Source: Chitinispirillaceae bacterium (GTDB lineage: Bacteria > Fibrobacterota > Chitinivibrionia > Chitinivibrionales > Chitinispirillaceae). From it: a DNA stretch of 25,914 nucleotides. The translations under genes and the position numbers were made by a program. A model generated the notes under the pieces. It made no database searches. It was not told the origin of the DNA and saw only the letters and a list, made by a program, of their open reading frames with translations. Each line of letters starts with the position of its first letter. Positions within the stretch are counted from its first letter, which is position 1. Shown piece by piece: positions 2,003 through 20,682 of the stretch. The DNA lies in contig DATAMG010000066.1 in the NCBI GenBank assembly GCA_036260705.1, positions 1-25,914 on the forward strand, given 5' to 3'.

Positions 2003-2902
2003 CTATCGATCGATAATTTCAATCAAAACAGGATCTGACCACGCCAGGTACTGTCCATGGAATAACACCTGTGATTGAACAGGGTAAATACCTTTCTTAG
2101 TCCAGACATGGATCAATTTATTATCAAATGTCCAATTGGAAATACTGCCATCACCCCACGAAATCCTGTACGACCAGTTTCCATCAATCCTAAGAGCAGG
2201 ATCAACAATTGATAAAGAAAAAGTGTCGTTTACATGCCCCTGAGGACATGTCAGTATGGACTCTCCTTTTACACAGAAAGGTTTAGGAGAACGGGACGGG
2301 AGAATGAGCGTATTTCCTGGTATTATTTCAATACAAAGGTATTCTTTACCAAGATCAATCGTTTTGCCGGTTGTGGGATCGTATCCTTTAATCTGAATTA
2401 TTCCCTTTGGAACTTCAGTAAAAACCATGGCTGTTGGTTTATCGATAAAACTGTACTTTCTCAGTCCAGGAAAAAAGATCACACTTCCTTGCGGAAGATT
2501 TAATGAATCGGTTTCCATATATATGCTTCCGAAGGCATCGGCAATGATGACATCTGTGATTAAAATAGTGTCATCCACCTGGCATTTTTGTGTAAACCCG
2601 ATTTCACTGTATTCACTTTTGCCGGAGATGGTATAATTTCCCGAAAAAACGCTGTCAAATGAAAAAGCTCCATTTTCGTCTGTTGTTGTTGTATACAATA
2701 ATGCACTGGAGCTATCTGTCAGATGATTGTAATTGTCAGGAATGAGCTCAACTGTGGCATTTGGTAACGGATCGCCATAACGATCTTTGATAATCCCTGC
2801 CACCCGCGAGTTTCCGTGGTCGCTGCTTCCTCCACTCAGAGGATCTGTTCCGCAGCCGTAAAAAAGTGATATGCATAAAGCGATCAATACAACATTTTTC
2901 AT
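2003..2902 (-). CDS. Lipoprotein with carboxypeptidase-regulatory-like (CarboxypepD_reg) and PKD-like domains
   Basis: Lipobox LFYGC follows a hydrophobic leader (MKNVVLIALCISLFYGCG). The segment AGIIKDRYGDPLPNATVELIP...TTTDENGAFSFDSVFSGNYTISGK is typical of the CarboxypepD_reg fold. C-terminal YRISWGDGS...HVWTKKGIYPV matches the PKD WGDG signature. Its ATG overlaps the upstream gene's stop as ATGA. Confidence 0.8.
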   Translation of the reverse strand: MKNVVLIALCISLFYGCGTDPLSGGSSDHGNSRVAGIIKDRYGDPLPNATVELIPDNYNHLTDSSSALLYTTTTDENGAFSFDSVFSGNYTISGKSEYSEIGFTQKCQVDDTILITDVIIADAFGSIYMETDSLNLPQGSVIFFPGLRKYSFIDKPTAMVFTEVPKGIIQIKGYDPTTGKTIDLGKEYLCIEIIPGNTLILPSRSPKPFCVKGESILTCPQGHVNDTFSLSIVDPALRIDGNWSYRISWGDGSISNWTFDNKLIHVWTKKGIYPVQSQVLFHGQYLAWSDPVLIEIIDR

Positions 2903-3735
2903 GTATTTTTTTCTCCGGGATTATCAGATAATGGAAACAGGTGAAGATTAACATTGTAAACACGATCGCTGTCTTTATCATCATTGACAATACGTCTGAT
3001 TCGATCCTTGAACTCCTCAAATTCCTGCTCGATCTGCTTGTAAGCGTTTTGAGAAATACCGATTGTCATACTGGAGATGTAACGTTTGTCCGGAGAATGT
3101 TTTTCAACAGCTTCGGATGCCATCTCCGCGAAGGCTTTATTGAGACTTCTGACACCTGAGGCATGTACATGATTACCGCTGGTGATAACCGGGGTACTTT
3201 GCCTGTAATTACCTTGTCCATCTTTTTCAATGAATCCCAGGCGAAGCAGCATCATGACACTTTCTCTGGCTTGACTTTCTTTTAATGTGGGATTGACACA
3301 AGAAGCCAGAAACCTGTAATCTTCATTCCATTTGATTAAGCAGGCCAGCTCTCTAAGTACCGGATTGTACCACCTTGAGTAATATTCATAGTGCTCAGCC
3401 GGAATGACTTCTTTGTGTACTTTATCTCTGAATTTCTTGAGTTCTGTGGTATAAACGTCGCGTTCTTTTGGATCCTGTGCCTGATTAAGATGCACCAGAA
3501 CCGTGAAAAACGCTGCATCACTGTCAGTAAGACCCAGCCCCTTAATAAACAGGGGGATGGTTTTATCGGTTAGGTTGCGGCTGCCTTTGACCACTTCAGA
3601 AAAAAGCGAGGGAGATTTTATTCCGGCTTTCTGACAGAAATACCGGTTGGAGAAGAATTGAAACCTGGCTTTTCGGTCTTCAAACCAATCACTGAGAAAA
3701 TCCCGGTAATTGTCATAATGTTCGATTCGATTCAT
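2899..3735 (-). CDS. TIGR02147-family protein (putative HTH DNA-binding protein, Fibrobacter/Bdellovibrio paralogous family)
   Basis: The N-terminus YDNYRDFLSDWFEDRKARFQFFSNRYFCQKAGIKSPSLFSEVVKGSRNLT...GLGLTDSDAAFF matches the pattern I recall for TIGR02147 (YR-FL-D-Y-ERK...S-R-F...G-RNL). Size of 278 aa is typical. The stop is coupled (ATGA) to the downstream lipoprotein gene. Confidence 0.75.
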   Translation of the reverse strand: MNRIEHYDNYRDFLSDWFEDRKARFQFFSNRYFCQKAGIKSPSLFSEVVKGSRNLTDKTIPLFIKGLGLTDSDAAFFTVLVHLNQAQDPKERDVYTTELKKFRDKVHKEVIPAEHYEYYSRWYNPVLRELACLIKWNEDYRFLASCVNPTLKESQARESVMMLLRLGFIEKDGQGNYRQSTPVITSGNHVHASGVRSLNKAFAEMASEAVEKHSPDKRYISSMTIGISQNAYKQIEQEFEEFKDRIRRIVNDDKDSDRVYNVNLHLFPLSDNPGEKNT

Positions 3736-3926: not shown

Positions 3927-6596
3927 TCAGTCTTGCCGCAATTCTTCCATAACAACCCTCAGGCCTTCCACTATTTTCTGCTCTTCAGAAAGACGCCCTT
4001 TTTCCACCCTTTTTTCTAATTCGGCAGTAGTTACCGGCATTCCGAAAGTAACATCTATACGACATGGGTGTATCATGGCTTCACCCACCGGAAGAGCTCG
4101 TTGTGTTCCCTCAATAATTACCGGAACTATCATAACCGGATGATGTTGCAGCAAAAATCCCAATCCGCGGTGGAACGGAAGAAATCCATTGCCATGCCCC
4201 AGACGCCCTTCCGGATACCAGATATAATTACGCTTTTGATTCAGTACTGCCGCAGAAATCGCCATATCACCCATAGCACTCATACTGTGAGTTATTGGTA
4301 CAGCTCCGGCAAGTCTGCTGACAAAACTGAATACCGGATTGCGGAATGCAACCTCCATTGCACCAGCCCAGCTACAGCGCCGCAAAAAGGGGTAGGGAAG
4401 TACTGCCGCAATGACAAACGAGTCAATATAACTCAAATGATTAGGGGTTATTATTATCTGTTGCCTGGTCAGTACATTTTTTAATCCATGAACACTGATT
4501 TTAAATATTGTATGCATGAAAATCCAGTTAAGGCAATAAAGAGCCGCACTTATTAATTCCAGGAAACCCCCTTTTGGCCGAAGGTATTTTTTCTGATTTG
4601 CATCAAGAAGTGATACCGGATTTATAAAAGGATCTTCATGATGCGAAAAAATACCGGCTTCTTTTTTAGAAACCGTTATTGTTATTAAATCCCTGATAGT
4701 CTCGATTTTTCTAATCGCCTGTTCATCGATCTCTATTCCGGTACGGTCGCGAATATCCAATGTAATTTCCAGCCATCCAAGCGAATCGATACCCAAGTCA
4801 AGTTGTGGTGATGTATCCAGGGTAAGAGAATAATCAGGGTAATAATGAACAAGTCTTTCCCATACCTGATTGGCAACAGGGTGCAGAAGCAGATTTCTAT
4901 CCTTTACAGACATGGATGCGATTGACTGCGGCTTATATTGGCCATGTTTATGATCTGTTAAAGTTTTCGCTTTGATATAATGATCATACAGCAAATGACG
5001 TCTGATCTTTCCCAGTCTTGTGCGCGGTATTTTTTCCCGAGTCATCACATACTCAGTAATACGTTTATAGGAAGGCAGAGACCTGTTCTGTTCATTAACT
5101 GCCCATCGAACCGCTTCAGGCACACTCATACCGCTTTCTGAAATAACCTGGAAATCCGGTATAATTACAGCTGTCAATTTGTGATCTGCCTTTAAGACAC
5201 CTGCCTCACTGATATAAGGACTCTTTTCATACCAAGCCTCCACTTCATCCGGTTGGATATTTTCTCCACTATCTGTGATAATAAGAGTAGATAATCTTCC
5301 AGTGATGAAAAGATCTCCGTTTTTATTGAGATATCCTGAATCTCCGGTTCGCAACCATCCGTCTTTTGTAAACATTTCTGCAGTTTCTTTTTGCAGATTT
5401 CTATATCCTTGAAATACACCGGGTCCCCTTGCCTGAATTTCTCCAATATTGCTGTTTTTATTATGGGGCATCGTTTTATCGATTCTCAAATCAACTCCAA
5501 TTACTGCTCTTCCAGCACTTGCCGGAACCGTTCTTGCAGGAGAACTGAGAGTCAATAATGGCGCAGTTTCAGTCAGGCCATAACCGACACTTATCTGCCA
5601 ACCCAGGACAGCAAGACCATTGAAAAGGCTTTCAGGAAGAGCCGCCCCACCTGAAGCAAGTAACCGGAGATGAGATCCGATTTTGTTCCGGACTGGTTTG
5701 AGTAATACCACACCTGCCCTGATTCTGGTGTGCTTCCATATAAATGTGGAAAGGTTAAGTGCTAAATGTGCCAATAAAGCGCCTGAACCTTTTTGCGTTT
5801 TAATAGAGCGGAGTATGCCGTCGTAAAGGGCCTGATACAGACGTGGTACACCGATTATCACAGTGGCATCACCTTCTTTAATGGCGCGGATCAGTTGTGG
5901 ACCGGTTACCGAGTAGGGTAAAATGATAGTAAGTCCCAGAAAAAGTGCAGTCAGTAATCCAATTACCAGAGGATATACATGGTGAAAAGGAAGTGGTAGC
6001 AAAATTCTATCATTTTTTCTGATTATATGTGCTTCATTCACTGCAGCAAATTGATATGAAATTGCCCTGTTATTTTGAGGTACGCCCTTTGGAGCACCTG
6101 TTGTTCCTGATGTGTAAAACAGAATCGCAATATCTTCCGGTTTCAGATCCGGTAAAACAACATCTTCTTTGGAAAGTAGGCTTACATTTGACAAATTAAT
6201 CAATTCCGGTTTATTTTTCAAATCAGTTTCTTTTATTTTCTCCATTACTTCATCATCAGCAATTAAAAGCCGCGGAGAACTATCTTTGAGTATATGGATC
6301 AATGATTTCCCGTTTATTTGGTGATCGATAGGAACGAGTGTTGCGCCTGTTCGTATTATCCCAAGTGCAGCAATGACTGCATCGATAGATGGGTTTGCCA
6401 TAAGAGCGATCCGTTCACCAGAGCTGATTCCTGAACTTATCAAACCTCGTGCTACTGATGCTGTTTTAGAATTAAGAATGCTGAAAGAGAGTCTGGTGAT
6501 CGTACTGCTTTTGCTGAACTGGATCAGGGCGGTTTCAGGCCCGTGGTGTTTTAAGGAATCGAAAAGGGATTGAAGCGAATCGGATTTGTTTTTCAT
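3927..6596 (-). CDS. Tri-domain enzyme: AMP-dependent acyl synthetase/ligase, carrier (phosphopantetheine-attachment) domain, and PlsC-type lysophospholipid acyltransferase
   Basis: Adenylation motifs YTSGTTGAPKGV (nt 6084-6116), GYGLTETAP, TGDSGYLNKNGDLFITGR and PRTRLGKIRR are present. There is a carrier-like LDLGIDSLGWLEI with Ser605 at nt 4782-4784. Acyltransferase motifs are HX4D (NHLSYID, His720 at nt 4437-4439) and YPEGRLG. GGAGG lies 4 nt upstream of the ATG. Confidence 0.9.
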   Translation of the reverse strand: MKNKSDSLQSLFDSLKHHGPETALIQFSKSSTITRLSFSILNSKTASVARGLISSGISSGERIALMANPSIDAVIAALGIIRTGATLVPIDHQINGKSLIHILKDSSPRLLIADDEVMEKIKETDLKNKPELINLSNVSLLSKEDVVLPDLKPEDIAILFYTSGTTGAPKGVPQNNRAISYQFAAVNEAHIIRKNDRILLPLPFHHVYPLVIGLLTALFLGLTIILPYSVTGPQLIRAIKEGDATVIIGVPRLYQALYDGILRSIKTQKGSGALLAHLALNLSTFIWKHTRIRAGVVLLKPVRNKIGSHLRLLASGGAALPESLFNGLAVLGWQISVGYGLTETAPLLTLSSPARTVPASAGRAVIGVDLRIDKTMPHNKNSNIGEIQARGPGVFQGYRNLQKETAEMFTKDGWLRTGDSGYLNKNGDLFITGRLSTLIITDSGENIQPDEVEAWYEKSPYISEAGVLKADHKLTAVIIPDFQVISESGMSVPEAVRWAVNEQNRSLPSYKRITEYVMTREKIPRTRLGKIRRHLLYDHYIKAKTLTDHKHGQYKPQSIASMSVKDRNLLLHPVANQVWERLVHYYPDYSLTLDTSPQLDLGIDSLGWLEITLDIRDRTGIEIDEQAIRKIETIRDLITITVSKKEAGIFSHHEDPFINPVSLLDANQKKYLRPKGGFLELISAALYCLNWIFMHTIFKISVHGLKNVLTRQQIIITPNHLSYIDSFVIAAVLPYPFLRRCSWAGAMEVAFRNPVFSFVSRLAGAVPITHSMSAMGDMAISAAVLNQKRNYIWYPEGRLGHGNGFLPFHRGLGFLLQHHPVMIVPVIIEGTQRALPVGEAMIHPCRIDVTFGMPVTTAELEKRVEKGRLSEEQKIVEGLRVVMEELRQD

Positions 6597-7301: not shown

Positions 7302-10300
7302 TTACTGACCGAATACTCTGAACTCGTATAAGCTGGGACTATCGCTGCCCGGTGTTCCATTAATTGTGATGCGAACATAACGGGCGGTGGTGGTACTGAA
7401 ACCATACCGTTGTGTTTGACGTGTATCCCAGTTGGGGTTCTGGTTTACCTGGGTTGTCCAGTTGACATTGTTGGGAGATGTTTCAACCTTGAAATCGTAG
7501 CAGTCTCCAGATGTGCCAACGGAGGCGAACATCATTTCAACCTCGTTCAGGGTACGCTGTGATCCCAGGTCAACCTTCACCCATTGAGGAAATGTTGTGG
7601 ATGATGCTTCCCAACGAGTTGTTGTGTTGTCATCACACACATTTGCAGCGGAATAGGGCCCGCCTACTTCACTTGATGCGGTAACGGTCTTACCCAGAGA
7701 AAGATTGCCGTATCCGCCATTGGGTGTGGTTGCGGATGCGGTATTGGACCAATCGGAAGTTTCTGATCCTTTAAAGGCATTTACCCTGTACCAATAGGTA
7801 ACCCCACCAGTCAATTGGGCATCGGTGTAAGTTCTGGCATTTGCACCTGCAGTGGCAATCTGAGACCATGGTCCGCTTGATCCCAATGATCTTTCAATGG
7901 TGAATCCGTTTTGATTAGACCCATTGTAACTCCATGCGAGGTTTATCTGATTTGGCGCCACGGCGGTAGCGGTAAGATTTGATGGAGACTGCACTTCGGA
8001 AGAATAAAATTCCATTTCAGCGATGTTGCAATTGCTGCCATCCGGGCCCAGATAGCGGACCCAACGGTATGCCTTTGAATTGGAAATGGTCACTTCATGC
8101 CACTGGTCGTGAGAAGTATTGGAAAGAGTGTAAAGATCTTCGAAATCGCTGCTGTTTGATGTTTTACCCTGGAACTTTCCACCATCCATTCTCGATTCCA
8201 AATCATGAGGTGGATAATACCGGATTTTTGAGATGACCTTCGCGGTTCCAAAATCCAAACCAGTATAACCTCCATCGGCAAACTTGTAATCGTAAAAGGT
8301 GGCAGTGTTTCCATCGATTGCGTTACAATATTCAGATCCGGAGTAATTTGCCGGGCCCGCTCCGAATGCAGTACCATGGAGGCCATTTCCTCCCCCTTGA
8401 GCTCCTGAGCAGGGATCTTCAACAAAGTTAGCTACGATTTTGTGGTTTGTGGTAATATCGTTGAATGTGTAGGAGGATACTCCCGGTTGATCTTTATCGT
8501 CAATCGAAAGGTAACAGGAATAACCGTTTTGAGGAGTAATCGAATAGGTTGCGCTTGAGCCGATACTGTAAGTTCTGATTCCACTGGGAGTAATAGAACC
8601 ATTGGACCCGGCTTGCGAGGTAATGGTGCACTCAGAGGGAACCTGCATGGAAGTATTGGTAAGAGTTATATAATCAAGATTGATGCAATTCCAGCTCGAA
8701 GCCGTTGATTTGTATTCAATAGAGTTGAGTCCGGCTTTTAGTGTCACAATTTCCGTATCATTTGCCCAGGAGTCCCAATTGGCAGTACCTGAGCAGGTAA
8801 TATCCTTTACGGGAATCCCATTTACAGAGAGTCTGGTATTGGCACTTTCACCGTTACCTGCTGAATAACGCAGCATTATTTCATAGTTGCCGTCAAAAGG
8901 TACATTAACGGTAAAGTTCACCGCTGCCGAGGCGTTGTAGAAAAAGCCGTCGACGAATCCCGTTCCTGAATACCCGCTGTGATTATTATTACTGTTTGCT
9001 CCGCCCGAAAGCGCAGCATCTTCGGCTTCATAGAAGTCTGTCGGTGATGAAATACCTACAAGATCGGAGCAGGAATAAGCATTATCAGGCTCTCCAAACT
9101 TATGATTTTTAATTGTCCGTACGAATACCCGGATATTAGAATTATCAGGATTGATCGTCAGGGTGACCGAATTCTTGGGGTACTCGACAGATGTACAGCT
9201 CCATTCTCCACCAACGGCTTTGTAGAAAATCTGCGTATGGTCACACACATCACTTCCGCGAAATTGCCAGTTCAGTGCAGCCTGGTTGGAGCCGCTCTTG
9301 CTTACGACCAATTCTGCCGGTCGAACATTAATCGGATTGGTTAGAGAAGCAGGTGTTTTGAGATCAATGACATTCGACGATGCTTTGTCTATTTCATTTG
9401 CGGCACTCAAGCTTATTCCATAAGTCGAATTTGTAGGCAGATCCATACCCTTGGAGTAGGATTTGATTCTGCGACGCGGATACTCTTTAAACGGGCCATT
9501 GTACCAGTAGGTGCCATCGGGAAACTTCATCGCTGCCTGGAAAACAAACCCTAGTTCGTTTTCGTAACCAATAGCAAATTCACATTTCATCGAATAGGGA
9601 TTACCATTGAGGTAGGCACTTTTAAGGTCAGGCGCATAGAGGTTGCTTAAGGGCATCACAGAAACGGTGTCGGAGTTGGCACGCTGACCGAATTCGTTGA
9701 TAGCTGCGACTGTGTAATAATATGTGGTATTATTCATGATGTTACTGTCAAGAAAGGTTGTATGGGGTGTGTTGATGATTGTTACGAACGGACCATTGGA
9801 ACTGGTCGACCGTTTGAGGTTATACGATACCCCTGTTTCCGGCACTATGGACCAGGAAAGGTTTGCACTGTTTGAGCCCGCGATTGGGGTATATAGCTCA
9901 GGAGTGGCTGGAGGCAGAGTGTCATTATTGGATGTTAATGTTGTGGCTGAATCGATCAGTGAATAGCCGCTGGACAGGCCGTCTTTTTCAAAGGCTATAC
10001 GATACTTATACCTAGTGCCTTCACTCAGGTTCTCATCCAAATATTCAGTGCCAGAAATTCTATTTGTTGTGATATCAGCAAACCCGGCCCGTTTTGCTTT
10101 AGAAGTAAAATTCGTACTTCGCTGGATACGGTATCCGTTAGCGCCCGGACATGGATCCCAGGAGAGTCGAATCTGAGAATGTGAAATCGCGGCAGCTTTA
10201 AAATTCTGTGGAACTTGTGCTTTGTAAATTGTTGGCAGGTTGAGCGCGACCTCTGGACATCCATACAGCATAGTCCATTGCACGTTACTTGTTTGTTGCT

Positions 10301-11444
10301 GTAAGTGTAATGAGTCCAATGCTTCAGCTGCGCACAAGTTAGAGTCTATCAAGTAGCTGAAATAAGCCGGCATTGCAATCTTTTCATCGACATTAGTGCC
10401 TACACCTTCATGGCTTCCTACAGTTTCTGTCGCTCCTACATAAGAAATTGCATTTGCGAAAAGTGTTCTGGCTCCACAGTTATTTGAGGATCGCGGATTC
10501 ATGGTGCCGCAACTGGCAGCATAAACCATTGCCGGAAAGGTGTCATTGAGATTTTTTGCGCCAGTCGAGGATATTATTCCCGATGATGATGTATTCCCTC
10601 CATGTGCATGCCAGTATACAATTCCTGGTGTTTCGCTTATCCAGGCGTTGAGAAAATCAGATTCGTTGCAATGAACATTTTCCCAAAGCGGGTTTTTGTT
10701 CACCATTTCCGGAATGAGAAAGTGGGGTGGATTTTTATATTGGACATAGTTGTCATAAAGCCTGTAAGAATTCCATCCTTTTGAAGGTAAAGTCGTGAGA
10801 ACGCTCTCGCCTATTTTATAGTTTTCTTCCTCTGGTTTGCTGCCTAGCCCAAGCGGAGTCTGTGCTATAAGGAAATTGCGACGCCATTCTACATCTGTTG
10901 CGTTTGAATAGGCTATTACCCTGCTCAGGTAGTTATCTAAATTAGTAGTATCGTCATCATACACCGGAATTCGTCCCACACAAAGATCTGCCCTGGTTTG
11001 TTTTATCCAATCGTTGCTCATATTTGCATAAGCGAAATCGGTAGCGATGTTAGTAGATTTAGGATATTTGGCCAGGAACATAGGCACATCCCCGTAATCC
11101 GGACATGGATGACCAATGAGAAGGACAAACTTGTTTGTATTGCTGGAAACATACCATTTCTTAATCTCAGAACGTATGCTGTCGGCTATCTCTTCGGAAC
11201 CCGCTTTGCCGGTGGGATTTATTTGAGCATCGTCTCTTGTTTGTACACTCGCGCCGAGTCCCCTCAGATGAGCGATGTAATCGTTGAGTTTATGTGATTT
11301 ATCTCTAATCCGGTTTGAATAAATAATCAGGTAACCCCGCCCATTGACATGGTTAGTGGCAGGGGGAGAAGATTGGGCCATTAACTGCACCGTGGCAGAA
11401 ATAAATATAAGTCCACCGATAACCAATTGATTGAATAAGCGCAT
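7302..11444 (-). CDS. Large secreted clan-CD cysteine peptidase (gingipain/C25-like) fused to FN3, CBM6/35-like, InlB-B-repeat-like and two F5/8 type C (discoidin) domains
   Basis: Signal peptide is MRLFNQLVIGGLIFISATVQLMA. The His-Gly ... Ala-Ser-Cys dyad arrangement (VYWHAHGG, His281; MVYAASCGT, Cys312 at nt 10509-10511) is typical of clan CD. FN3-like segments include PQNFKAAAISHSQIRLSWDPCPGANGYRIQRS and others. The CBM6/35-like segment is DFYEAEDAALSGG...GYSGTGFVDGF...NWDSWAN...INLDYITL. Discoidin-like segments are NAIDGNTATFYD... and AANVCDDNTTTRWEA...FPQWVKVDLG. AAGGAGG lies 5 nt upstream of the ATG. Confidence 0.85.
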   Translation of the reverse strand: MRLFNQLVIGGLIFISATVQLMAQSSPPATNHVNGRGYLIIYSNRIRDKSHKLNDYIAHLRGLGASVQTRDDAQINPTGKAGSEEIADSIRSEIKKWYVSSNTNKFVLLIGHPCPDYGDVPMFLAKYPKSTNIATDFAYANMSNDWIKQTRADLCVGRIPVYDDDTTNLDNYLSRVIAYSNATDVEWRRNFLIAQTPLGLGSKPEEENYKIGESVLTTLPSKGWNSYRLYDNYVQYKNPPHFLIPEMVNKNPLWENVHCNESDFLNAWISETPGIVYWHAHGGNTSSSGIISSTGAKNLNDTFPAMVYAASCGTMNPRSSNNCGARTLFANAISYVGATETVGSHEGVGTNVDEKIAMPAYFSYLIDSNLCAAEALDSLHLQQQTSNVQWTMLYGCPEVALNLPTIYKAQVPQNFKAAAISHSQIRLSWDPCPGANGYRIQRSTNFTSKAKRAGFADITTNRISGTEYLDENLSEGTRYKYRIAFEKDGLSSGYSLIDSATTLTSNNDTLPPATPELYTPIAGSNSANLSWSIVPETGVSYNLKRSTSSNGPFVTIINTPHTTFLDSNIMNNTTYYYTVAAINEFGQRANSDTVSVMPLSNLYAPDLKSAYLNGNPYSMKCEFAIGYENELGFVFQAAMKFPDGTYWYNGPFKEYPRRRIKSYSKGMDLPTNSTYGISLSAANEIDKASSNVIDLKTPASLTNPINVRPAELVVSKSGSNQAALNWQFRGSDVCDHTQIFYKAVGGEWSCTSVEYPKNSVTLTINPDNSNIRVFVRTIKNHKFGEPDNAYSCSDLVGISSPTDFYEAEDAALSGGANSNNNHSGYSGTGFVDGFFYNASAAVNFTVNVPFDGNYEIMLRYSAGNGESANTRLSVNGIPVKDITCSGTANWDSWANDTEIVTLKAGLNSIEYKSTASSWNCINLDYITLTNTSMQVPSECTITSQAGSNGSITPSGIRTYSIGSSATYSITPQNGYSCYLSIDDKDQPGVSSYTFNDITTNHKIVANFVEDPCSGAQGGGNGLHGTAFGAGPANYSGSEYCNAIDGNTATFYDYKFADGGYTGLDFGTAKVISKIRYYPPHDLESRMDGGKFQGKTSNSSDFEDLYTLSNTSHDQWHEVTISNSKAYRWVRYLGPDGSNCNIAEMEFYSSEVQSPSNLTATAVAPNQINLAWSYNGSNQNGFTIERSLGSSGPWSQIATAGANARTYTDAQLTGGVTYWYRVNAFKGSETSDWSNTASATTPNGGYGNLSLGKTVTASSEVGGPYSAANVCDDNTTTRWEASSTTFPQWVKVDLGSQRTLNEVEMMFASVGTSGDCYDFKVETSPNNVNWTTQVNQNPNWDTRQTQRYGFSTTTARYVRITINGTPGSDSPSLYEFRVFGQ

Positions 11445-13640: not shown

Positions 13641-15638
13641 ATGAAAGTTTCTTTTGCAGTTCTTTCTGCGTTTTTTATCATTATGTTTTCCACTGTAACA
13701 CATTCTAAAAACATTATTAAGCTTCTGGAATCACAGAATTTTTACGCAATAGTCGATTCTGCATCTGGTGGGATTATCAAAGCTTTAAAATATGAGCGTG
13801 TGGGTGAGTTCGAAGAGGGCTTTGCTACTGTATATTTGAACGGGTATGGATTCATTGATGAAAACGGAAAAGAGATAACACCTTTGATCTACAGTAGAAT
13901 TTCAAATTTCCGGGATGGATTTGGGCAGATCGAAATGAATCGGAAATGGGGCTGTGTAGATAAAACAGGAAAAGAGCTTACCGAGTTCAAATATGATTAT
14001 GTCTGTTCATTCAGCCGTGATATAGCCATGGTAAAACTTGGTAATAAAGCAGGATATATCAACCGTGAAATGATAGAGATAGTACCTCTAAAATATGATG
14101 ATGTTGAGTTTACCGGAAAGTACAGTAAAAACCTGTTTAGAGTGAAACTGAACGGGAAGTTTGGATATGTTGATAGGAGCGGAAAAGAAATCATACCGCC
14201 GAAATATGATGATGCTTGTCAAGGGGATGATTTCAAAGAAGGAATAGGAATAGTATGTGTTAATAATAAATGGGGTGTAATAGATGAGAGCGGAAAGGAA
14301 GTGTTGCCTTTTAAATACGATATAATAAACCTGGATGCCTTCAAGAACACAGGCCTGATCTGTATCTCTATTGATGGAAAATGGGGATGTATCAACATAA
14401 AAGACGAGGTAGTAGTTCCGATAAGTTATGAACATGTTTCATTATTCAGCAACAATCTGTTGCAAGTTGGTTTAAATGGCAAGTTTGGGTTGATAAATGT
14501 TAATAATAAGATAGTCGCTCAAATAATCCATGGTGATATAAAGCTATCATGTTACCCTGATCTTATCGAAGTCTCAAATGGCAAATTTTCTTCGTACGGC
14601 TTTATTGATTTCACAGGTAAAGTGGTCGTCCCTGCAAAATATAACAGTGCAATTATTGTTGATAGCTGCATTATTGTAGAAGAAACAAGGAAAACCGGGG
14701 CTGGCAGCATAACCGGACAAGGTATATTGAATCTGAAAGGTGAAGTGGTTTTGCCTACGAAATATAAGAAAGTGAAGCAGTACAAAAGATCTTTTTTTCT
14801 GGTGGAAACAGAACATCCTAAATATGGTCTTTGTAATAAATCAGGTAGATTAATAGTTGATCTTCATGATTTTATTATTCTACAGGACAGTCTTGTGTAT
14901 GTAAATAAGGGAGGAGTGCTTAGGAACAATAACATAAATGGAGGTAAAAATGGTCTTTACGATTTAGAAGGCAGAAAACTCACAGAAATAGTTTACGATT
15001 ACATATCAGCATTCAATGATGGACTTGCTGTTGTAGTTAAAGCTGGCAAAATGGGTTTCATTGATAAGAGCGGCAGAGAAGTCATCGGACTCAAATATGA
15101 TTATGTCTTTGACATGAGATTCCATAACGGGCTGGCAGCGGTAAATATCGGCGGTAAAATGGATGAGAACCTGGGATTTGTTTCCGGCAAATGGGGATTT
15201 ATAGACTCCAAAGGCGAAATGATTATCCCATACCAGTATGATGGTGCATCTGCTTTTAGCGCCGGTGTAGCGCCAGTCAAAAAAGATGGATTTTTCGGGG
15301 CTGTAGACAGGAACGGTAATGAAATAGTACCTTTTAAATATCAGGATATGGGACCGTTTTTTGAGGGCATAGCCTATTACAGAAGGGGTGAAAAATTTGG
15401 GTTCATCGATTCAACTGGTAAAGAGCTCTGTCCTAATGAATATAATTCTGCCGGAATTTTCAGTGATGGAATCGCCCCAGTATTAAAAGATAACAAAATC
15501 GGATTCGTAGACAAAAATGCAAAGCTTGTTATTCCTTGCCAATACGACGATGCAGGGAACTTTATTAACGGATACTGCCTTGTGAGAATCGGAGATAAAA
15601 ACCATCTGATAAATAAAAGAGGTGAGGTGATTAAATAA
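13641..15638 (+). CDS. Secreted WG-repeat (KWG-type) protein
   Basis: Signal peptide is MKVSFAVLSAFFIIMFSTVTHS. About 15-18 (by eye) tandem ~35-40-aa units follow, each with the G-(K/R)-(W/F)G-(F/Y/C/V)(I/V)D-x-xGKE-(I/V)-P-KYD pattern (KWGCVDKTGKE, KFGYVDRSGKEIIPPKYDD, KWGVIDESGKEVLPFKYD, KWGFIDSKGEMIIPYQYD). Confidence 0.9.
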   Translation: MKVSFAVLSAFFIIMFSTVTHSKNIIKLLESQNFYAIVDSASGGIIKALKYERVGEFEEGFATVYLNGYGFIDENGKEITPLIYSRISNFRDGFGQIEMNRKWGCVDKTGKELTEFKYDYVCSFSRDIAMVKLGNKAGYINREMIEIVPLKYDDVEFTGKYSKNLFRVKLNGKFGYVDRSGKEIIPPKYDDACQGDDFKEGIGIVCVNNKWGVIDESGKEVLPFKYDIINLDAFKNTGLICISIDGKWGCINIKDEVVVPISYEHVSLFSNNLLQVGLNGKFGLINVNNKIVAQIIHGDIKLSCYPDLIEVSNGKFSSYGFIDFTGKVVVPAKYNSAIIVDSCIIVEETRKTGAGSITGQGILNLKGEVVLPTKYKKVKQYKRSFFLVETEHPKYGLCNKSGRLIVDLHDFIILQDSLVYVNKGGVLRNNNINGGKNGLYDLEGRKLTEIVYDYISAFNDGLAVVVKAGKMGFIDKSGREVIGLKYDYVFDMRFHNGLAAVNIGGKMDENLGFVSGKWGFIDSKGEMIIPYQYDGASAFSAGVAPVKKDGFFGAVDRNGNEIVPFKYQDMGPFFEGIAYYRRGEKFGFIDSTGKELCPNEYNSAGIFSDGIAPVLKDNKIGFVDKNAKLVIPCQYDDAGNFINGYCLVRIGDKNHLINKRGEVIK

Positions 15639-15927
15639 TTCTTTCTGGAATCTGGTGATGTAAATACCTCAAATGCAGTCGAATGTTTTACCAGGTTTTA
15701 TAATTAAATCGCCGCTTCCGGATTTTTCGCGGGTAGTCCCTATATATTGTGGTAAAGGCATAATTTCACAATGAATTAAAAACAATTGAGTTACCATATA
15801 TGGTATATACCCACAAAAAGCCGGATGCCCCAAAGATATTAGAGGGGATTTTGATGTTTCAAAGGGAGTTGTTTTTAAACGCAGATCTCAAAAGAACAAG
15901 AAAGAATCCTTTGTTTTATATCAATCA

Positions 15928-16146
15928 ATGCAATCAAACAGAGCTCAAAAAATTCCCTTAATGCTGGAGGCATCACCAGAGCATATATTCGGGAAAAAAA
16001 TATTGGTTGTTGATGAACAGCCTGTATTGGAGCTGATTATTGGGAAAAAGAGTTATCTTACAGGAATTTTCACCGGCTACGGAGTCATTATCGTTTTTAT
16101 AATTACTGTGGTTTTAATTCAGAAGAAAAGAAACTTATTAAAATAG
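15928..16146 (+). CDS. Hypothetical small tail-anchored membrane protein (weak call)
   Basis: 72-aa ORF with one C-terminal hydrophobic helix (LTGIFTGYGVIIVFIITVVLI) followed by KKRNLLK. It has no recognisable RBS and no family match that I recognise. Confidence 0.25.
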   Translation: MQSNRAQKIPLMLEASPEHIFGKKILVVDEQPVLELIIGKKSYLTGIFTGYGVIIVFIITVVLIQKKRNLLK

Positions 16147-16265
16147 TGGTGATGCAAAATACAATTCACCTAACCCTCAGCGCACTCTACCGGGCTTCAA
16201 GGCTGGAGGTTCCTCAGTATATTCGGAATGACAAGTAATACAGTCAAAATGTGATTCTATTAAGT

Positions 16266-16290
16266 ATTCTGGCAAAAAACTTGCCAGAAT
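16266..16290. other. 10-bp-stem hairpin attctggcaa-aaaac-ttgccagaat
   Basis: The inverted repeat is perfect when read directly. It lies in a ~1-kb low-coding stretch. No U-run follows on either strand, so a terminator role is unproven. Confidence 0.6.
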
Positions 16291-16650
16291 TAACTTGCTA
16301 ATGTATCTTATTGCCCTATCGGTTAATTAAATTTGGCAGGCAAAAGCAGGGATTGCTATGATGATGCTTAAAAAGAGTGGACCGGTCAGGACATACATTA
16401 ACAAACCAAAGATTAGCGTTAATCTTAATATTGTAAAATCGGTAGATAAAATTTACAGTAGCCGTCTTAAAGATGTCCTTGGTATAACAGGTTTCAACAG
16501 CTTTATCCCAATTTTTAATCTCGCTGATACAATTCCTGACAGCTGCATTCATTTCTATTCTTCAATAGTGCAGCTAAAAAGTTGGGCAAATTTAAAAACA
16601 AATTGAGATAAAACTATTTTAAAAGTCAGTTAAGTATTGAAATTATGTGC

Positions 16651-16679
16651 TTTACAATAAATCGAATCAGAAATAATAA
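16651..16679 (+). promoter_or_regulatory. Sigma70-like promoter candidate upstream of the TIR gene
   Basis: TTTACA (16651-16656), a 17-nt spacer, then TAATAA (16674-16679), about 36 nt upstream of the ATG at 16715. The region is very AT-rich, so chance matches are likely. Confidence 0.3.
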
Positions 16680-16714
16680 ATTTCAAATTTAGTAATGCAT
16701 TTATGGAGGCGCTC

Positions 16715-17893
16715 ATGGCAAAACCACTCAGTGTATTTATTTCTTACTCTCACAAAGATAAAATATTTTGCTCGGATTTAAGAGAATATCTGACACTACT
16801 TGAAAAAGATGGATTAATTTCTCTCTGGTATGATGGTCAAATTGTGCCTGGAACTGAGTGGGATATTGAAATTAAAGAAAACCTCAGAAAAGCTGACATA
16901 ATTTTGTTATTAGTAAGTAACGATTTCATCAATTCTAATTATATCGATAAGATCGAATTAAAAGAAGCAATGGACAGGCATAACAATAAATCTGCAAGGG
17001 TAATTCCGATAATTACACGCACATGTGAGTGGGAGAGATTACTATTACACAAGCTGTCTGTTTTGCCAAAAAATGAGAATGATTCTGTTGAACCAATATT
17101 TAAATGGTCACAACCAGATGATGCCTATGTGAATATTGCTAAGGGGGTTCGCAGAGCTGTCGAGGATCTTATGTTATCATTAAAAATGGACGAAAAAATT
17201 AACAAGCCAGAATCAGGACAAAAAACACTGACACCACCCGATGAAAATTTGTATCATTTGTTTGGCTTAAAAGGCATTAGAACCGGTGATGTAACGATTC
17301 AGGATTTCGCTATCAGCAGAGTCGGAATGGGAGAAAAAAATATTAATGCAGTACAGTATTTGTGGGCAGACACATTTACCGGCTGTAAAATTAATGCAGT
17401 AATAAAAAAAGATAGAATTCCATGTCTGCGTGTGGAATTTGATCATAGAGGCGGGTGGGGATGCAATTTAGCAATTCGACCAAAATGTGAAATGGCTTAC
17501 CATAATAAAGGTTATAGATATTTAGTTTTTGATGCAATCCTACCTAAAGATATGGAAACTGAATCAAACGATCTGCTTAAGGAGGTGTCCGTAGCCGTTC
17601 GTATCGTAAATGGCCGGCTTCAGCATTGGGAGTATTCAGTTCATTCCAGAGAATACATAAATTTGATCGTTAAAGAATCGACATGGGGTTTGGAGCCTGT
17701 AAAAATCGACCTGATGTCGGATAATTGGCATTTGTTCACATCTGATGGTAATATCAAAACTTATGATGATGATCCAAATTTCTCAACTATTACATCAGTG
17801 ATTTTGAAATTCGGCAGCACACCAGATGTTACTGGCGAACCTGCCCGTGGGAAAGGTATAATAGAAATCAGATCACTATATTTATCTGATTGA
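16715..17893 (+). CDS. TIR-domain protein with an uncharacterised ~215-aa C-terminal domain
   Basis: TIR_2-type N-terminus: PLSVFISYSHKDKIFCSDLREYL...GLISLWYDGQIVPGTEWDIEI...ADIILLLVSNDFINSNYIDKIELKEAM. GGAGG lies 5 nt upstream of the ATG at 16715; the ORF track's earlier ATG at 16703 has no RBS. There is no signal peptide or TM segment. The C-terminal part (nt ~17240-17890) has no motif I recognise. Confidence 0.85.
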   Translation: MAKPLSVFISYSHKDKIFCSDLREYLTLLEKDGLISLWYDGQIVPGTEWDIEIKENLRKADIILLLVSNDFINSNYIDKIELKEAMDRHNNKSARVIPIITRTCEWERLLLHKLSVLPKNENDSVEPIFKWSQPDDAYVNIAKGVRRAVEDLMLSLKMDEKINKPESGQKTLTPPDENLYHLFGLKGIRTGDVTIQDFAISRVGMGEKNINAVQYLWADTFTGCKINAVIKKDRIPCLRVEFDHRGGWGCNLAIRPKCEMAYHNKGYRYLVFDAILPKDMETESNDLLKEVSVAVRIVNGRLQHWEYSVHSREYINLIVKESTWGLEPVKIDLMSDNWHLFTSDGNIKTYDDDPNFSTITSVILKFGSTPDVTGEPARGKGIIEIRSLYLSD

Positions 17894-17952
17894 AAATGTA
17901 ATTCGCTTCATGCTTACATATGTGTAAAAGCAGTATGAAGAAGGAGATGTGA

Positions 17953-19236
17953 ATGCTGATTATAAATAATGAATCAATGGATAAATATATTAAATCTCGA
18001 TATACTTATCAGAATATACAGGAAATTTTAAATGTTCTGGAAGCTCAAAAGACGCTGACTTTTTCTCCTTTAGATAACGGGCTTTTTCCTGCTGCCAAAA
18101 CTGGAAAAGAAACAGACTATACCGGATATTCTTCTATTTGGGTGAGAGATAATATCCATATAGCTCATGCTCATTCAGTGCTTGACAACTATGAAATTGC
18201 CCTGAAGACTATTAATGCTTTAATGTGCTATTTTAAAAAACACAAGAATCGGTTTGAAAAAATCATTTCTTTTCAATCAGATCCTTCTGATCCTATGAAC
18301 CGTCCGCATATCCGCTTTAATGGTTTTAACCTTGAGGAAATAGATCAGAAATGGGCACATGCTCAGAATGACGCTTTAGGCTATTTCTTATGGTTTTATT
18401 GTAAACTTGCTAATCAAGGCAGACTTAAAATTTTGGATGAGGATCTGGAATTATTACTTCTCTTTCCAAAATACTGGTCAACCATTCAGTTCTGGCAGGA
18501 TGAGGATAGTGGGCATTGGGAGGAAAATCGCAAAATTTCAGCTTCCAGCATTGGAGTTGTATTAGCTGCTTTACAAGAATTGAATCACTATTTATCCAAT
18601 CATAATCAAATAAAAATGGAGGTAATCGATCAGATAAAGTATTTGATTGGGATGGGTCAGCAGAGTTTAGATCTAATACTTCCATCAGAGTGCATTCAAT
18701 CTGATTCAAAGAAAAAAAGACGGTTTGATTCTGCTCTACTGTTTCTTATTTATCCTTTGGGGGTTGTAACTGGAAATATGGCAGATACAATCCTGAATGA
18801 TGTAATGACAAATCTGCAGGGTAAGTATGGAATCCGCCGGTATATTGGAGATTCTTATTGGTCAGCAGATTACAAAAAGAAACTCGAGCCCGGAGCACGG
18901 ACTGTTGATTTTAGCGACGATCTTTCTACAAGAGATTCTTTTCTTAAAGAAAATGAAGAAGCACAATGGTGCATATTTGATCCAATCATTTCAGTAATCT
19001 TTGGATTAAAATATCAGAAAACAAAGTCTGAACACGATTTTAACTTACAAATACACTATTTAAATCGTTCCCTTGGACAGATTACCGGTTTTCAAAGCAA
19101 TACAGGTGAATTTCTGTGCCCTGAAAGCTATTATTTGGAAGATGGTAAATATGTTCCAAGTGATCCGACTCCTCTTTATTGGACACAGGCTAATTTAATT
19201 TGCGCTCTTAAGACGATGGAACATTCTTTACAGTAA
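17953..19236 (+). CDS. Cytoplasmic glycoside hydrolase family 15-like (alpha/alpha)6-barrel protein (glucoamylase / phosphorylase-kinase alpha-beta-like)
   Basis: GH15 landmarks are present: YSSIWVRDN, the general-acid region DSGHWEEN, the general-base region FLCPESYY, and the closing PLYWTQANLI (compare PLTWSHA). There is no signal peptide. AAGGAG lies 6 nt upstream of the ATG. The gene starts 59 nt after the TIR gene stop. Confidence 0.75.
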   Translation: MLIINNESMDKYIKSRYTYQNIQEILNVLEAQKTLTFSPLDNGLFPAAKTGKETDYTGYSSIWVRDNIHIAHAHSVLDNYEIALKTINALMCYFKKHKNRFEKIISFQSDPSDPMNRPHIRFNGFNLEEIDQKWAHAQNDALGYFLWFYCKLANQGRLKILDEDLELLLLFPKYWSTIQFWQDEDSGHWEENRKISASSIGVVLAALQELNHYLSNHNQIKMEVIDQIKYLIGMGQQSLDLILPSECIQSDSKKKRRFDSALLFLIYPLGVVTGNMADTILNDVMTNLQGKYGIRRYIGDSYWSADYKKKLEPGARTVDFSDDLSTRDSFLKENEEAQWCIFDPIISVIFGLKYQKTKSEHDFNLQIHYLNRSLGQITGFQSNTGEFLCPESYYLEDGKYVPSDPTPLYWTQANLICALKTMEHSLQ

Positions 19237-19355
19237 ACGAATGTCAAAGTGAATGGAATCATATGAATACAGCATTGTGTCTCGCCAGACTATCCACAAA
19301 TTGCTCTGAAAAATTAAATTATCAATACCATCACCCCAAAAAGAAAAGAGACTGT

Positions 19356-19790
19356 ATGAAAACTTCTAATCTGAATTTTCTCCTGTTAACATTTCTCAGC
19401 TTAACTTTTGTATGGACAGCTGAGGGAAAGAAACCGGTTCAGGATTCTTCATTAACCCCCCTATCTGTGATAGAGAAGGCTTTTTTAAAAAAGACATCAA
19501 ACATTCAGGTAAAACAGGCTGGAACGATAATCAAATTATTACCAGATGACAACGATGGCGCCAGACATCAGAAGATGATAATAAAATTGGAAAATGGTCG
19601 CACACTTCTGATTTCACATAATATCGATCTGGCAAAGAGAATTCCGAATCCCAGAACTGGGAAAAATCTGAAATTCTATGGCGAATACGAATGGAATTCA
19701 AATGGTGGAGTCGTTCACTGGACTCATAAGGATCCCGGTGGTAAGCATATCAACGGTTGGTTGGAATACGAAGGGAAGAAATATCAGTGA
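19356..19790 (+). CDS. DUF3465-like secreted protein
   Basis: From the internal ATG at 19356 the product begins with a signal peptide (MKTSNLNFLLLTFLSLTFVWTAEG). The stretch LLPDDNDGARHQKMIIKLENGRTLLISHNIDLAKRIP...FYGEYEWNSNGGVVHWTHKDPGGKHINGW matches my memory of the DUF3465 consensus. The track's longer 19263 start adds a non-signal extension. Confidence 0.7.
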   Translation: MKTSNLNFLLLTFLSLTFVWTAEGKKPVQDSSLTPLSVIEKAFLKKTSNIQVKQAGTIIKLLPDDNDGARHQKMIIKLENGRTLLISHNIDLAKRIPNPRTGKNLKFYGEYEWNSNGGVVHWTHKDPGGKHINGWLEYEGKKYQ

Positions 19791-19944: not shown

Positions 19945-20682
19945 ATGGAACCTCAACAGACACATAACACTCATGACCACTATTTCCGGGAATCTGTCGA
20001 ACATCCAGAGATAATAAAAGACATATGCAGACTGACTATTCCAAAAAAGCTGCTTTCCATATTGGATTTAACTAAACTTGAAATAGTACACGATGTGTGG
20101 GTTGATAATGATCTAAGTATTCATTATGCAGATGTTCTGTACCGTGCACGGATTAAAGGAAAGAGACAGTGGGTCTATCTGCTGTTTGAGCATAAAAGTA
20201 GGATCAATGCTGATGTGTCTTATCAGATCCTTAGTTATATGATGCAGATCTGGGAGGAGTATCGTAAACAGAGCAGGCGTAACCTTAATAAGCACCCGCT
20301 TGTTATCTCAACCGTTTTATACCATGGTTATAAACCCTGGAAGAGATGCAATACTATAAAAGACATAACCGAAGTTTTAACAGATGCTGAAGATTATGTG
20401 CCTGAATTCAGGGCAAAAGTATTCGATGTGAGTGAATTATGTGAAACTCAATTGGGCAAAGTGAGCTTTTACGCTCAAGTGTTTCTTATTTCATTAAGAT
20501 ACTCTTATCATCCAGAAAAATGGGAAATTTTACCAGAGCTGATACAATTGTACCGTAAAGCAACTGGTAAGCAGAGGGAGTACCTGTCTGTATCATTCAA
20601 ATACATTTTGGGTTTGATGAATATAGGCAGAAAAAACAGCTTTTTGCAAAGGCAAGGGCGTATGATGGTGGGGATGAGTTGA
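19945..20682 (+). CDS. Rpn/YhgA-like (Transposase_31) PD-(D/E)XK recombination-promoting nuclease, N-terminal nuclease portion
   Basis: The sequence HDHYFRESVEHPEII...ADVLYRARIKGKRQWVYLLFEHKS...YQILSYMMQIWEEY fits the family pattern HD--FK ... D-(l/v) ... (l)-EHQ/K-S. The ORF ends at a TGA that overlaps the next ORF's ATG (TGATG at 20680-20684). Confidence 0.8.
   Translation: MEPQQTHNTHDHYFRESVEHPEIIKDICRLTIPKKLLSILDLTKLEIVHDVWVDNDLSIHYADVLYRARIKGKRQWVYLLFEHKSRINADVSYQILSYMMQIWEEYRKQSRRNLNKHPLVISTVLYHGYKPWKRCNTIKDITEVLTDAEDYVPEFRAKVFDVSELCETQLGKVSFYAQVFLISLRYSYHPEKWEILPELIQLYRKATGKQREYLSVSFKYILGLMNIGRKNSFLQRQGRMMVGMS

Follow-up and report, generated by a model that had tools for sequence, protein, structure and literature searches.

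A TIR and jelly-roll fusion encoded beside a GH15-family protein in a Chitinispirillaceae bacterium: a candidate two-gene conflict cassette

Several bacterial defence effectors, among them TIR-SAVED and TIR-STING of the cyclic-oligonucleotide-based antiphage signalling systems (CBASS), the TIR effectors of Pycsar, and the CRISPR-associated Cat1, join a TIR domain with a catalytic Glu to a separate regulatory domain. The active sites of TIR NADases, such as SARM1, AbTir, Cat1 and others, need TIR-TIR assembly and, to our knowledge, the known sensors fused to TIR effectors read nucleotides or phage proteins. In this study, we analysed a stretch of 25,914 nucleotides (nt) from a Chitinispirillaceae bacterium (contig DATAMG010000066.1), hereafter the window. 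Gene 1 (P0001, 16715-17893) encodes a TIR domain joined to a C-terminal beta-jelly-roll that we call C-dom, and is followed on the same strand by a gene (17953-19236) for a protein of glycoside hydrolase family 15 (GH15). We propose, with a probability of about one half, that these two genes form a horizontally mobile conflict cassette, in which the GH15 protein and the jelly-roll would sense or regulate and the TIR domain would serve as an NAD+-depleting effector. A TIR effector placed under a sensor unit with exchangeable effectors is a known kind of arrangement; the control unit is new.

The longest open reading frame (ORF) over gene 1 runs from 16703 to 17893 (396 aa) and has a second ATG at 16715. 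Since a GGAGG Shine-Dalgarno sequence stands 5 nt ahead of this second ATG and the homologues begin with MAKPL, 16715 is likely the true start, in agreement with the start chosen in an earlier reading made from the DNA letters alone (the sequence-only reading). Glu81 of the resulting 392-aa protein corresponds to Glu85 of the 396-aa ORF. Desulfobacterium sp. N47 and a metagenome-assembled genome (MAG) of Syntrophaceae are among those that have full-length homologues, at 47-50% identity, and gene 1 is therefore a real gene and not a chance ORF. For both cassette genes the closest relatives are from Desulfobacterales and Syntrophaceae.

The assignment of residues ~8-150 to the TIR_2 pattern, made in the sequence-only reading, was borne out by profile searches. 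Pfam TIR_2 matches gene 1 with 61.2 bits (cut-off 28, E=1.8e-16, aa 11-111), Pfam TIR with 25.1 bits (cut-off 21.3), and the PADLOC ThsB1 model PDLC00420 with E=2.2e-42 over aa 10-158, covering only positions 3-147 of its 319. The same reading had lined up the segment SNDFINSNYIDKIELKEAM, encoded at 16916-16972, with the S-x-W-C-x-x-E-L region of TIR proteins, and had put the Glu encoded at 16955-16957 in the NAD+-cleaving position. The best solved sequence relative of this domain is the TIR NADase Cat1 (PDB 9mud, E=2e-5), and HMMER pairs NYIDKIEL of gene 1 with DWCW-DEL of Cat1, placing Glu on the Glu of W-C-x-x-E-L, with one residue inserted and Trp replaced by Tyr. Alignment to a characterised TIR NADase thus agrees with the earlier placement of both segment and Glu. 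In the corresponding column, 14 of 18 TIR_2-type family members have Glu and the other four a gap, with no other residue. Judged by these alignments, the TIR domain of gene 1 is a putative NAD+-consuming effector.

The C-terminal ~215 residues had been described in the sequence-only reading as a segment of no recognised family and as a beta-sandwich loosely like CBM (carbohydrate-binding module) or CIA30 folds, and the three peptides quoted there are all present in this part of gene 1. C-dom gave no match in Pfam, NCBIfam or PADLOC and has no sequence relative in PDB, so the first half of that description stands. No Pfam CBM family matched at E<=1, the sole Pfam match being a sub-threshold stretch of IceA2. 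This likeness to the H. pylori protein, which covers a VRIVNGxLQHWEY strand pair at C-dom residues 118-152 (~17585-17690), scored E=0.023 in Pfam (15 bits against a cut-off of 25) and E=0.0054 over 35 residues with PDB 7xfp, and was judged to be due to chance. An exhaustive profile search assembled a C-dom family of 116 cluster representatives. The AlphaFold2 model built on the alignment of these sequences, with a pLDDT (predicted local distance difference test) of 95 and a pTM (predicted template modelling score) of 0.92, is an essentially all-beta jelly-roll of ~15 strands, and supersedes a first model from 16 sequences (pLDDT 64.6) whose Foldseek matches were uninformative. Its best Foldseek match in PDB is CBM11 of C. 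thermocellum (6r31_A; E=2.8e-5, probability 1.0, TM-scores 0.52/0.65, 10% identity), which gives substance to the second half of the description, and the next ones are the spirochaete sheath protein FlaA1 and generic jelly-rolls. Against the viral structures of BFVD it showed weak tail-fibre and F5/8-type-C-like folds, and in the viral collections no viral contig encodes C-dom. The idea that C-dom is the missing N-terminal beta-sandwich of bacterial glucoamylases was rejected, since Foldseek with the pLDDT-95 model returned neither a glucoamylase N-domain nor a chain of phosphorylase kinase (PhK). Nine residues (W44, D46, F69, N78, R123, W132, W165, F168, and D171 in domain numbering) are near-invariant over the 116 members, and they might be of the kind seen in sugar sites.

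C-dom is C-terminal in all 116 cluster representatives, and what stands in front of it varies widely. By Pfam, the N-termini are TIR_2 (34 members), CAP12/Pycsar-type TIR (8), DUF4062 (2), and EAD11 (2), with one member each for EAD1, a DUF676/PGAP1-like alpha/beta-hydrolase (lipase-like), and a ParA-like ATPase, and a hydropathy scan found two N-terminal transmembrane helices in ~40 of the 116. Loci from metagenomes add a nucleoside-deoxyribosyltransferase/TIR-like module and more of the two-helix and EAD11 forms. C-dom is a mobile module that sits behind exchangeable effector-type N-termini, and the expectation that new biology would lie in the non-TIR domain is borne out to this extent. Swaps of TIR, transmembrane, and hydrolase modules on a constant domain are a signature of regulated death effectors, as in CBASS, Pycsar, and Thoeris. 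A pattern scan found C-dom in 4 of 185,579 species representatives.

The GH15 partner gene lay outside the sequence-only reading. It begins 59 nt after the stop codon of gene 1 with a Shine-Dalgarno sequence of its own, and no terminator-like site was found between the two genes. Promoter and terminator scans gave counts not above shuffled expectation, and Rfam and tRNA scans gave no matches. When 25 independent C-dom loci (designated below by L numbers) were scanned with profiles, 19 of them had a GH15-family ORF immediately downstream in the same orientation, and the gap, measured in 13 loci, was between -17 and 119 nt. All of the loci examined first, namely those of Desulfobacterium N47 and the Syntrophaceae MAG, two with a transmembrane-C-dom protein, and one with another TIR type, were paired in this way. 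The pairing is independent of the type of N-terminal module, and the flanks of the paired loci are unrelated. Over 13 loci, the pairwise identities of C-dom and GH15 co-vary (r=0.64), with mean identities of 0.39 and 0.54, respectively. The GH15 protein of L011 and L014 belongs to another clade. It has 365 aa, shares 20% identity with the partner in the window and is closest in PDB to Kribbella isomaltose glucohydrolase, and the C-dom beside it is 48% identical to that of the window. Because this other clade can take the place of the partner, what is needed seems to be GH15 chemistry rather than one particular protein or interface. In L012 (7077-7322, a Calothrix MAG) and also in L015, the GH15 sequence after a transmembrane-coiled-coil-C-dom gene is a fragment covering profile positions 281-353, to be explained by gene decay or by a faulty assembly.

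Pfam Glyco_hydro_15 (PF00723) matches the partner with 37.7 bits (cut-off 22). The only solved sequence relatives are the GH15-like D1 domains of PhK alpha and beta (PDB 8jfk, M/B), found with E=1e-6 from the single sequence and 1.5e-12 with a profile, and homologues are labelled by JGI and NCBI as phosphorylase kinase alpha/beta subunit or as GH15. Among bacterial proteins, the partner stands nearest to the PhK alpha/beta D1 domain. It has neither a signal peptide nor the N-terminal beta-sandwich of bacterial glucoamylases. In GH15 enzymes, the general acid and the general base are the residues equivalent to E179 and E400 of A. niger glucoamylase. The active site was mapped by a MAFFT alignment bridged by the GH15 protein of L011, with an A. 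niger glucoamylase sequence identical to that of PDB 3eqa. In this alignment W63/R65/D66 of the partner correspond to W52/R54/D55, W189/E190/E191 to W178/E179/E180, R296 to R305, D300 to D309, E391 to E400, and W410 to W417. The mapped residues are invariant in 121 of 121 relatives (the 120 best homologues and the partner itself), with one R65Q as the sole exception, which indicates strong selection on this site. The partner can thus be described as a GH15 glycosidase-like protein with an intact active site and as a putative hydrolase.

These features of the pair can be accommodated in a model of regulated cell killing that would involve a physical interaction of the two proteins, a ligand, NADase activity, and a role in immunity. 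The product of gene 1 is a cytoplasmic protein in which a short linker connects the TIR domain to the CBM11-like jelly-roll. The jelly-roll may dock onto the GH15 protein, or work with it, to form a sensing or regulatory unit that would read the appearance, hydrolysis, or loss of a glycosidic ligand. A change in this ligand would lead the N-terminal modules to oligomerise, bringing TIR domains together and thereby causing NAD+ depletion that kills the cell. In relatives, the same unit would act through two-helix transmembrane modules, TIR domains of other types, a lipase-like hydrolase, or, by way of EAD11, a recruited CHAT protease. The most likely biological role appears to be anti-phage defence of the abortive-infection type.

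Alternatively, the GH15 protein may be an inhibitor, as in guard or toxin-antitoxin-like systems, which binds the jelly-roll and holds the TIR or transmembrane toxin off. The toxin would fire once degradation, titration, or inhibition of GH15 lifts this block, as might happen through a phage factor aimed at host glucan metabolism. The tight operon with the effector gene first and the higher conservation of GH15 than of C-dom would suit such an arrangement, as would the fusion of GH15 to a transmembrane module in some proteins and its occurrence as an ordinary solitary gene (both described below), the latter offering a possible guarded host function. However, the invariant active site and the tolerated swap of GH15 clade suggest that catalysis or ligand binding matters, not a fixed protein interface, and we consider inhibition by the GH15 protein rather unlikely.

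The match of the TIR domain to ThsB1 raises another scenario. The TIR would produce an ADP-ribose isomer of glycosidic type, whose ribose-ribose O-glycosidic bond would be processed or destroyed by the inverting GH15 enzyme, and the jelly-roll would be the binding site of the nucleotide-sugar. A precedent exists in the phage protein RyDEP, an inverting glycosidase which splits the ribose-ribose bond of the cyclic ADP-ribose molecules 2'cADPR and 3'cADPR (2026 preprint, PMC13232231). Nevertheless, no ORF in the window encodes a ThsA-type protein (SIR2 or Macro/transmembrane with a SLOG sensor), and the residues of the -1 subsite agree with those in GH15 enzymes acting on glucose. Moreover, roughly one family member in three carries two transmembrane helices and lacks a TIR, so that no signal producer would be present there, yet GH15 is kept. 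Such Thoeris-like signalling is accordingly very improbable.

The GH15 family has at least 2498 matches, and we sampled it without regard to C-dom. In three sampled loci, from a Campbellbacteria-type contig, a Gallionella MAG, and a metagenome contig (L037, L038, and L040), a gene for a multi-transmembrane protein of ~190-260 aa lies directly upstream of the GH15 gene, and in P0276 and P0327 GH15 carries this same module as an N-terminal fusion. The multi-transmembrane protein belongs to no Pfam family and has no PADLOC match. Since this GH15 clade also adjoins or fuses with such proteins, it appears to be a hub for effector-like partners. In the proposed cassette the jelly-roll could be the sensor. 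Given the direct coupling of GH15 to a transmembrane module, however, the jelly-roll may instead be a GH15 adaptor rather than the primary sensor, and it may be the GH15 partner, not the jelly-roll alone, that actually senses, with the jelly-roll as adaptor or co-sensor. The layout of L011, a Bacteroidales MAG in which an EAD11-C-dom gene and its GH15 gene face a convergent gene for an EAD11-CHAT protease, suggests by analogy that the protease could be recruited as effector through EAD11-EAD11 pairing. Recruitment of effectors through paired EADs has been described, without mention of GH15 (PMC7159879).

Recombinases, integrases, SocA, an E2-CBASS/ThiF pair or PLD/Tle1-like genes lie near the loci with the multi-transmembrane protein, and mobile or defence genes (AbiEii, integrases, transposases, MNT/HEPN, an E2-CBASS/ThiF pair, SocA) are found in several flanks, in keeping with the proposed cassette. 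In the Syntrophaceae locus L003, a MAP3K_TRAF_bd/TPR-S protein and a separate TIR_2 protein are encoded at 13764-16020, ~3-5 kb downstream of the pair, and may be another defence gene pair.

Several observations weigh against the proposed conflict cassette. PADLOC-DB 2.0.0 has no model that matches C-dom, the GH15 partner, the transmembrane-C-dom relatives, or the multi-transmembrane partner. The modelled fold of C-dom appears CBM-like, and its moderate similarity to CBM11 leaves sugar binding unproven. In PhK alpha D1, the nearest solved relative, the site is intact, yet no action on maltose, isomaltose, or glycogen was detected (PMC10978961). Relatives of the GH15 partner with 54-55% identity are solitary in Rippkaea PCC 8801 and Halothece PCC 7418, which indicates that this enzyme also has a life outside cassettes. 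Six of the 25 C-dom loci (L022, L024, L026, L028, L029, and L033) have no GH15 neighbour; in L022 an IS110-type transposase gene lies downstream of the C-dom gene, and in L024 and L026 a DUF4062-C-dom gene is followed by one for the GH77 enzyme MalQ, L026 having TreY in addition. Finally, alpha-glucan genes adjoin C-dom genes in three loci (L005, L024, and L026), so that a metabolic role is possible.

Such a role would belong to the non-immune metabolism of glycogen, maltodextrin, or trehalose, where the CBM-like domain would tether the N-terminal module to a glucan, GH15 would trim this glucan, and the TIR would be a scaffold or a metabolic NADase. GH15 chemistry is the hydrolysis of alpha-glucosides, the neighbours in those three loci are MalQ, a GT5 glycogen-synthase-like gene, or TreY, the closest solved relative of the partner is the glycogen-pathway regulator PhK alpha/beta, and the cyanobacterial GH15 orthologues stand alone. 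In contrast, the swaps among TIR types, two-helix modules, lipase-like hydrolase, and EAD11 with CHAT are typical of conflict systems and not of housekeeping functions, and both the patchy distribution of C-dom in the pattern scan and the unrelated, often mobile flanks speak against a metabolic role as well. Such a metabolic function is therefore unlikely in our view.

The loci without a GH15 neighbour also speak for the model implicit in the sequence-only reading, that of a stand-alone TIR sensor in which recognition of a phage protein or glycan would fall to the jelly-roll alone, the GH15 gene being incidental. The weak fold similarity to phage tail-fibre and F5/8-type-C-like domains would be in keeping with it. 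On the other hand, a pairing in 19 of 25 loci with operon-like spacing, kept across unrelated flanks and varied N-termini, is far beyond an incidental one, which makes the stand-alone sensor the least probable of the explanations considered here. On balance, a cassette in which GH15 and the jelly-roll act together on an exchangeable effector is the reading we prefer.

The two genes lie within a stretch of low G+C content, 0.33-0.39 over ~11.5-20.5 kb as compared with 0.42-0.49 in the flanks, and a YhgA-type transposase gene is located just downstream of them (Table 1). Together these are consistent with horizontal acquisition and suggest an acquired island. The DUF3465 gene that follows the GH15 gene is probably outside the unit, because it is not conserved beside the pair in the other loci examined. 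The ~1 kb upstream of the TIR gene (15640-16700) has no ORF longer than 82 aa; one of the short ORFs there (15928-16146, 72 aa) includes a hydrophobic stretch, and promoter-like sites in this region were not above shuffled expectation. Farther upstream, the window encodes a secreted-looking protein of 665 aa with ~15 WG_beta_rep repeats (13641-15638, plus strand, E=3e-123). On the minus strand it encodes a 1380-aa protein with CBM6/CBM35, fibronectin-III, and F5/8 type C domains that is unrelated to the cassette (7302-11444), an Aas-like fusion of AMP-binding, carrier-protein, and acyltransferase domains (3927-6596, 889 aa), and a DUF4423 protein (2899-3735).

Table 1. Positions of the features discussed, in the window and, for entries with an L number, in the respective locus
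Feature	Sequence	Positions	Strand	Basis or remark
Shine-Dalgarno GGAGG of gene 1, 5 nt before ATG 16715	window	16705-16709	+	sequence reading
Gene 1 (P0001), TIR / jelly-roll fusion, 392 aa	window	16715-17893	+	ORF list, homologues, Shine-Dalgarno
TIR domain, aa 10-158 (numbering of the 396-aa ORF)	window	16730-17176	+	Pfam TIR_2, PADLOC ThsB1, Cat1 as best PDB sequence match
Putative catalytic Glu codon, E81 (392 aa) / E85 (ORF)	window	16955-16957	+	translation; aligned to the Glu of Cat1 WCWDEL
C-dom, unnamed C-terminal beta-jelly-roll, ~217 aa, CBM11-like fold	window	17240-17890	+	hidden Markov model envelope, AlphaFold2, Foldseek
Shine-Dalgarno AGGAG of the GH15 gene, 6 nt upstream of its start	window	17942-17946	+	sequence reading
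Partner gene, 427-aa cytoplasmic GH15-family (alpha/alpha)6 protein, PhK-alpha/beta-D1-like clade	window	17953-19236	+	Pfam PF00723, PDB 8jfk
GH15-like E190 codon, equivalent to A. niger general acid E179	window	18520-18522	+	alignment; invariant 121/121
GH15-like E391 codon, equivalent to A. niger general base E400	window	19123-19125	+	alignment; invariant 121/121
DUF3465 protein gene, hydrophobic N-terminal segment	window	19263-19790	+	E=7.6e-48; 27 nt after the GH15 gene
YhgA-like Transposase_31 gene	window	19945-20682	+	E=7e-34; just downstream of the cassette
EAD11-C-dom gene	L011	5707-6657		Bacteroidales MAG
GH15 gene	L011	6724-7821		
EAD11-CHAT protease gene	L011	7859-8956	-	convergent
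Multi-transmembrane partner gene of GH15	L037	4238-5017		upstream of GH15
Multi-transmembrane partner gene of GH15	L038	3355-3984		upstream of GH15
Multi-transmembrane partner gene of GH15	L040	3447-4007		upstream of GH15
GT5 glycogen-synthase-like (GlgA-like) gene	L005	8217-11137	-	alpha-glucan neighbour
GH77 MalQ gene	L024	1586-2035		alpha-glucan neighbour
GH77 4-alpha-glucanotransferase gene	L026	5868-7433		alpha-glucan neighbour
Maltooligosyl-trehalose-synthase-like (TreY) gene	L026	7386-10490	-	alpha-glucan neighbour

We found no paper linking GH15 or glucoamylase, or a CBM-like domain, to TIR or to defence. If the cassette is a defence system, it would bring a new sensing chemistry to bacterial immunity, in the form of a compact two-gene unit that is easy to test. 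One may speculate, as a rather unlikely extension, that immune sensing here is based on glycosides, the GH15 enzyme making or destroying a glycosidic small molecule, or recognising a glycosylated phage component, with the jelly-roll as receptor. Equally tentative examples of what it would recognise are sugar-modified DNA and a ribose-ribose-linked nucleotide made by a TIR, upon which the receptor would switch on TIR, transmembrane, or protease effectors. Should this hold, it would be the first carbohydrate- or glycosidase-centred sensor in bacterial immunity, and it would hint at the ligand of the D1 domains of eukaryotic PhK alpha/beta.

The best fold match of C-dom, CBM11 (PDB 6r31 and 2lro), is a galactose-binding-domain-like jelly-roll, from which C-dom differs in its low identity (10-12%), its larger size by ~50 residues, its cytoplasmic location, and its fusion to death-effector modules. 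The D1 domains of PhK alpha/beta (8jfk) share with the partner the GH15 (alpha/alpha)6 domain, both catalytic Glu residues, and the -1 subsite residues, and PhK alpha D1, like the partner, has an intact site (PMC10978961). In contrast to PhK, the partner is a single-domain bacterial protein of 427 aa that lacks D2-D5 and is in an operon with effector fusions, and a bacterial ligand could make the old question of the PhK D1 substrate testable. The TIR region matches the ThsB1 model of Thoeris over positions 3-147 of 319 only, and gene 1 differs from ThsB in its additional C-terminal domain and its GH15 partner. Two-gene systems of the Panoptes type, which combine an enzyme with a membrane or TIR effector, can be likened to the cassette in that a conserved enzyme goes with a protein carrying an exchangeable killing module; this likeness is by analogy only, as the enzyme here is a glycoside hydrolase homologue and not a nucleotide cyclase. 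No nucleotide cyclase was found in the window or in the homologous loci, and C-dom has no SAVED, STING, or cNMP-binding match in Pfam. With the TIR fusions of CBASS, Pycsar, and Cat1, gene 1 further shares that its regulatory domain is also found behind transmembrane effectors in relatives. It differs from them in that this second domain is a CBM11-like jelly-roll and not SAVED, STING, CARF, or cNMP-binding, and in that the conserved partner is a GH15 glycosidase-like protein and not a cyclase or CRISPR component. The control unit thus combines a sugar-binding-like fold with a glycoside hydrolase homologue whose active site is strictly conserved, and it recurs in combination with six or more kinds of killing or adaptor modules.

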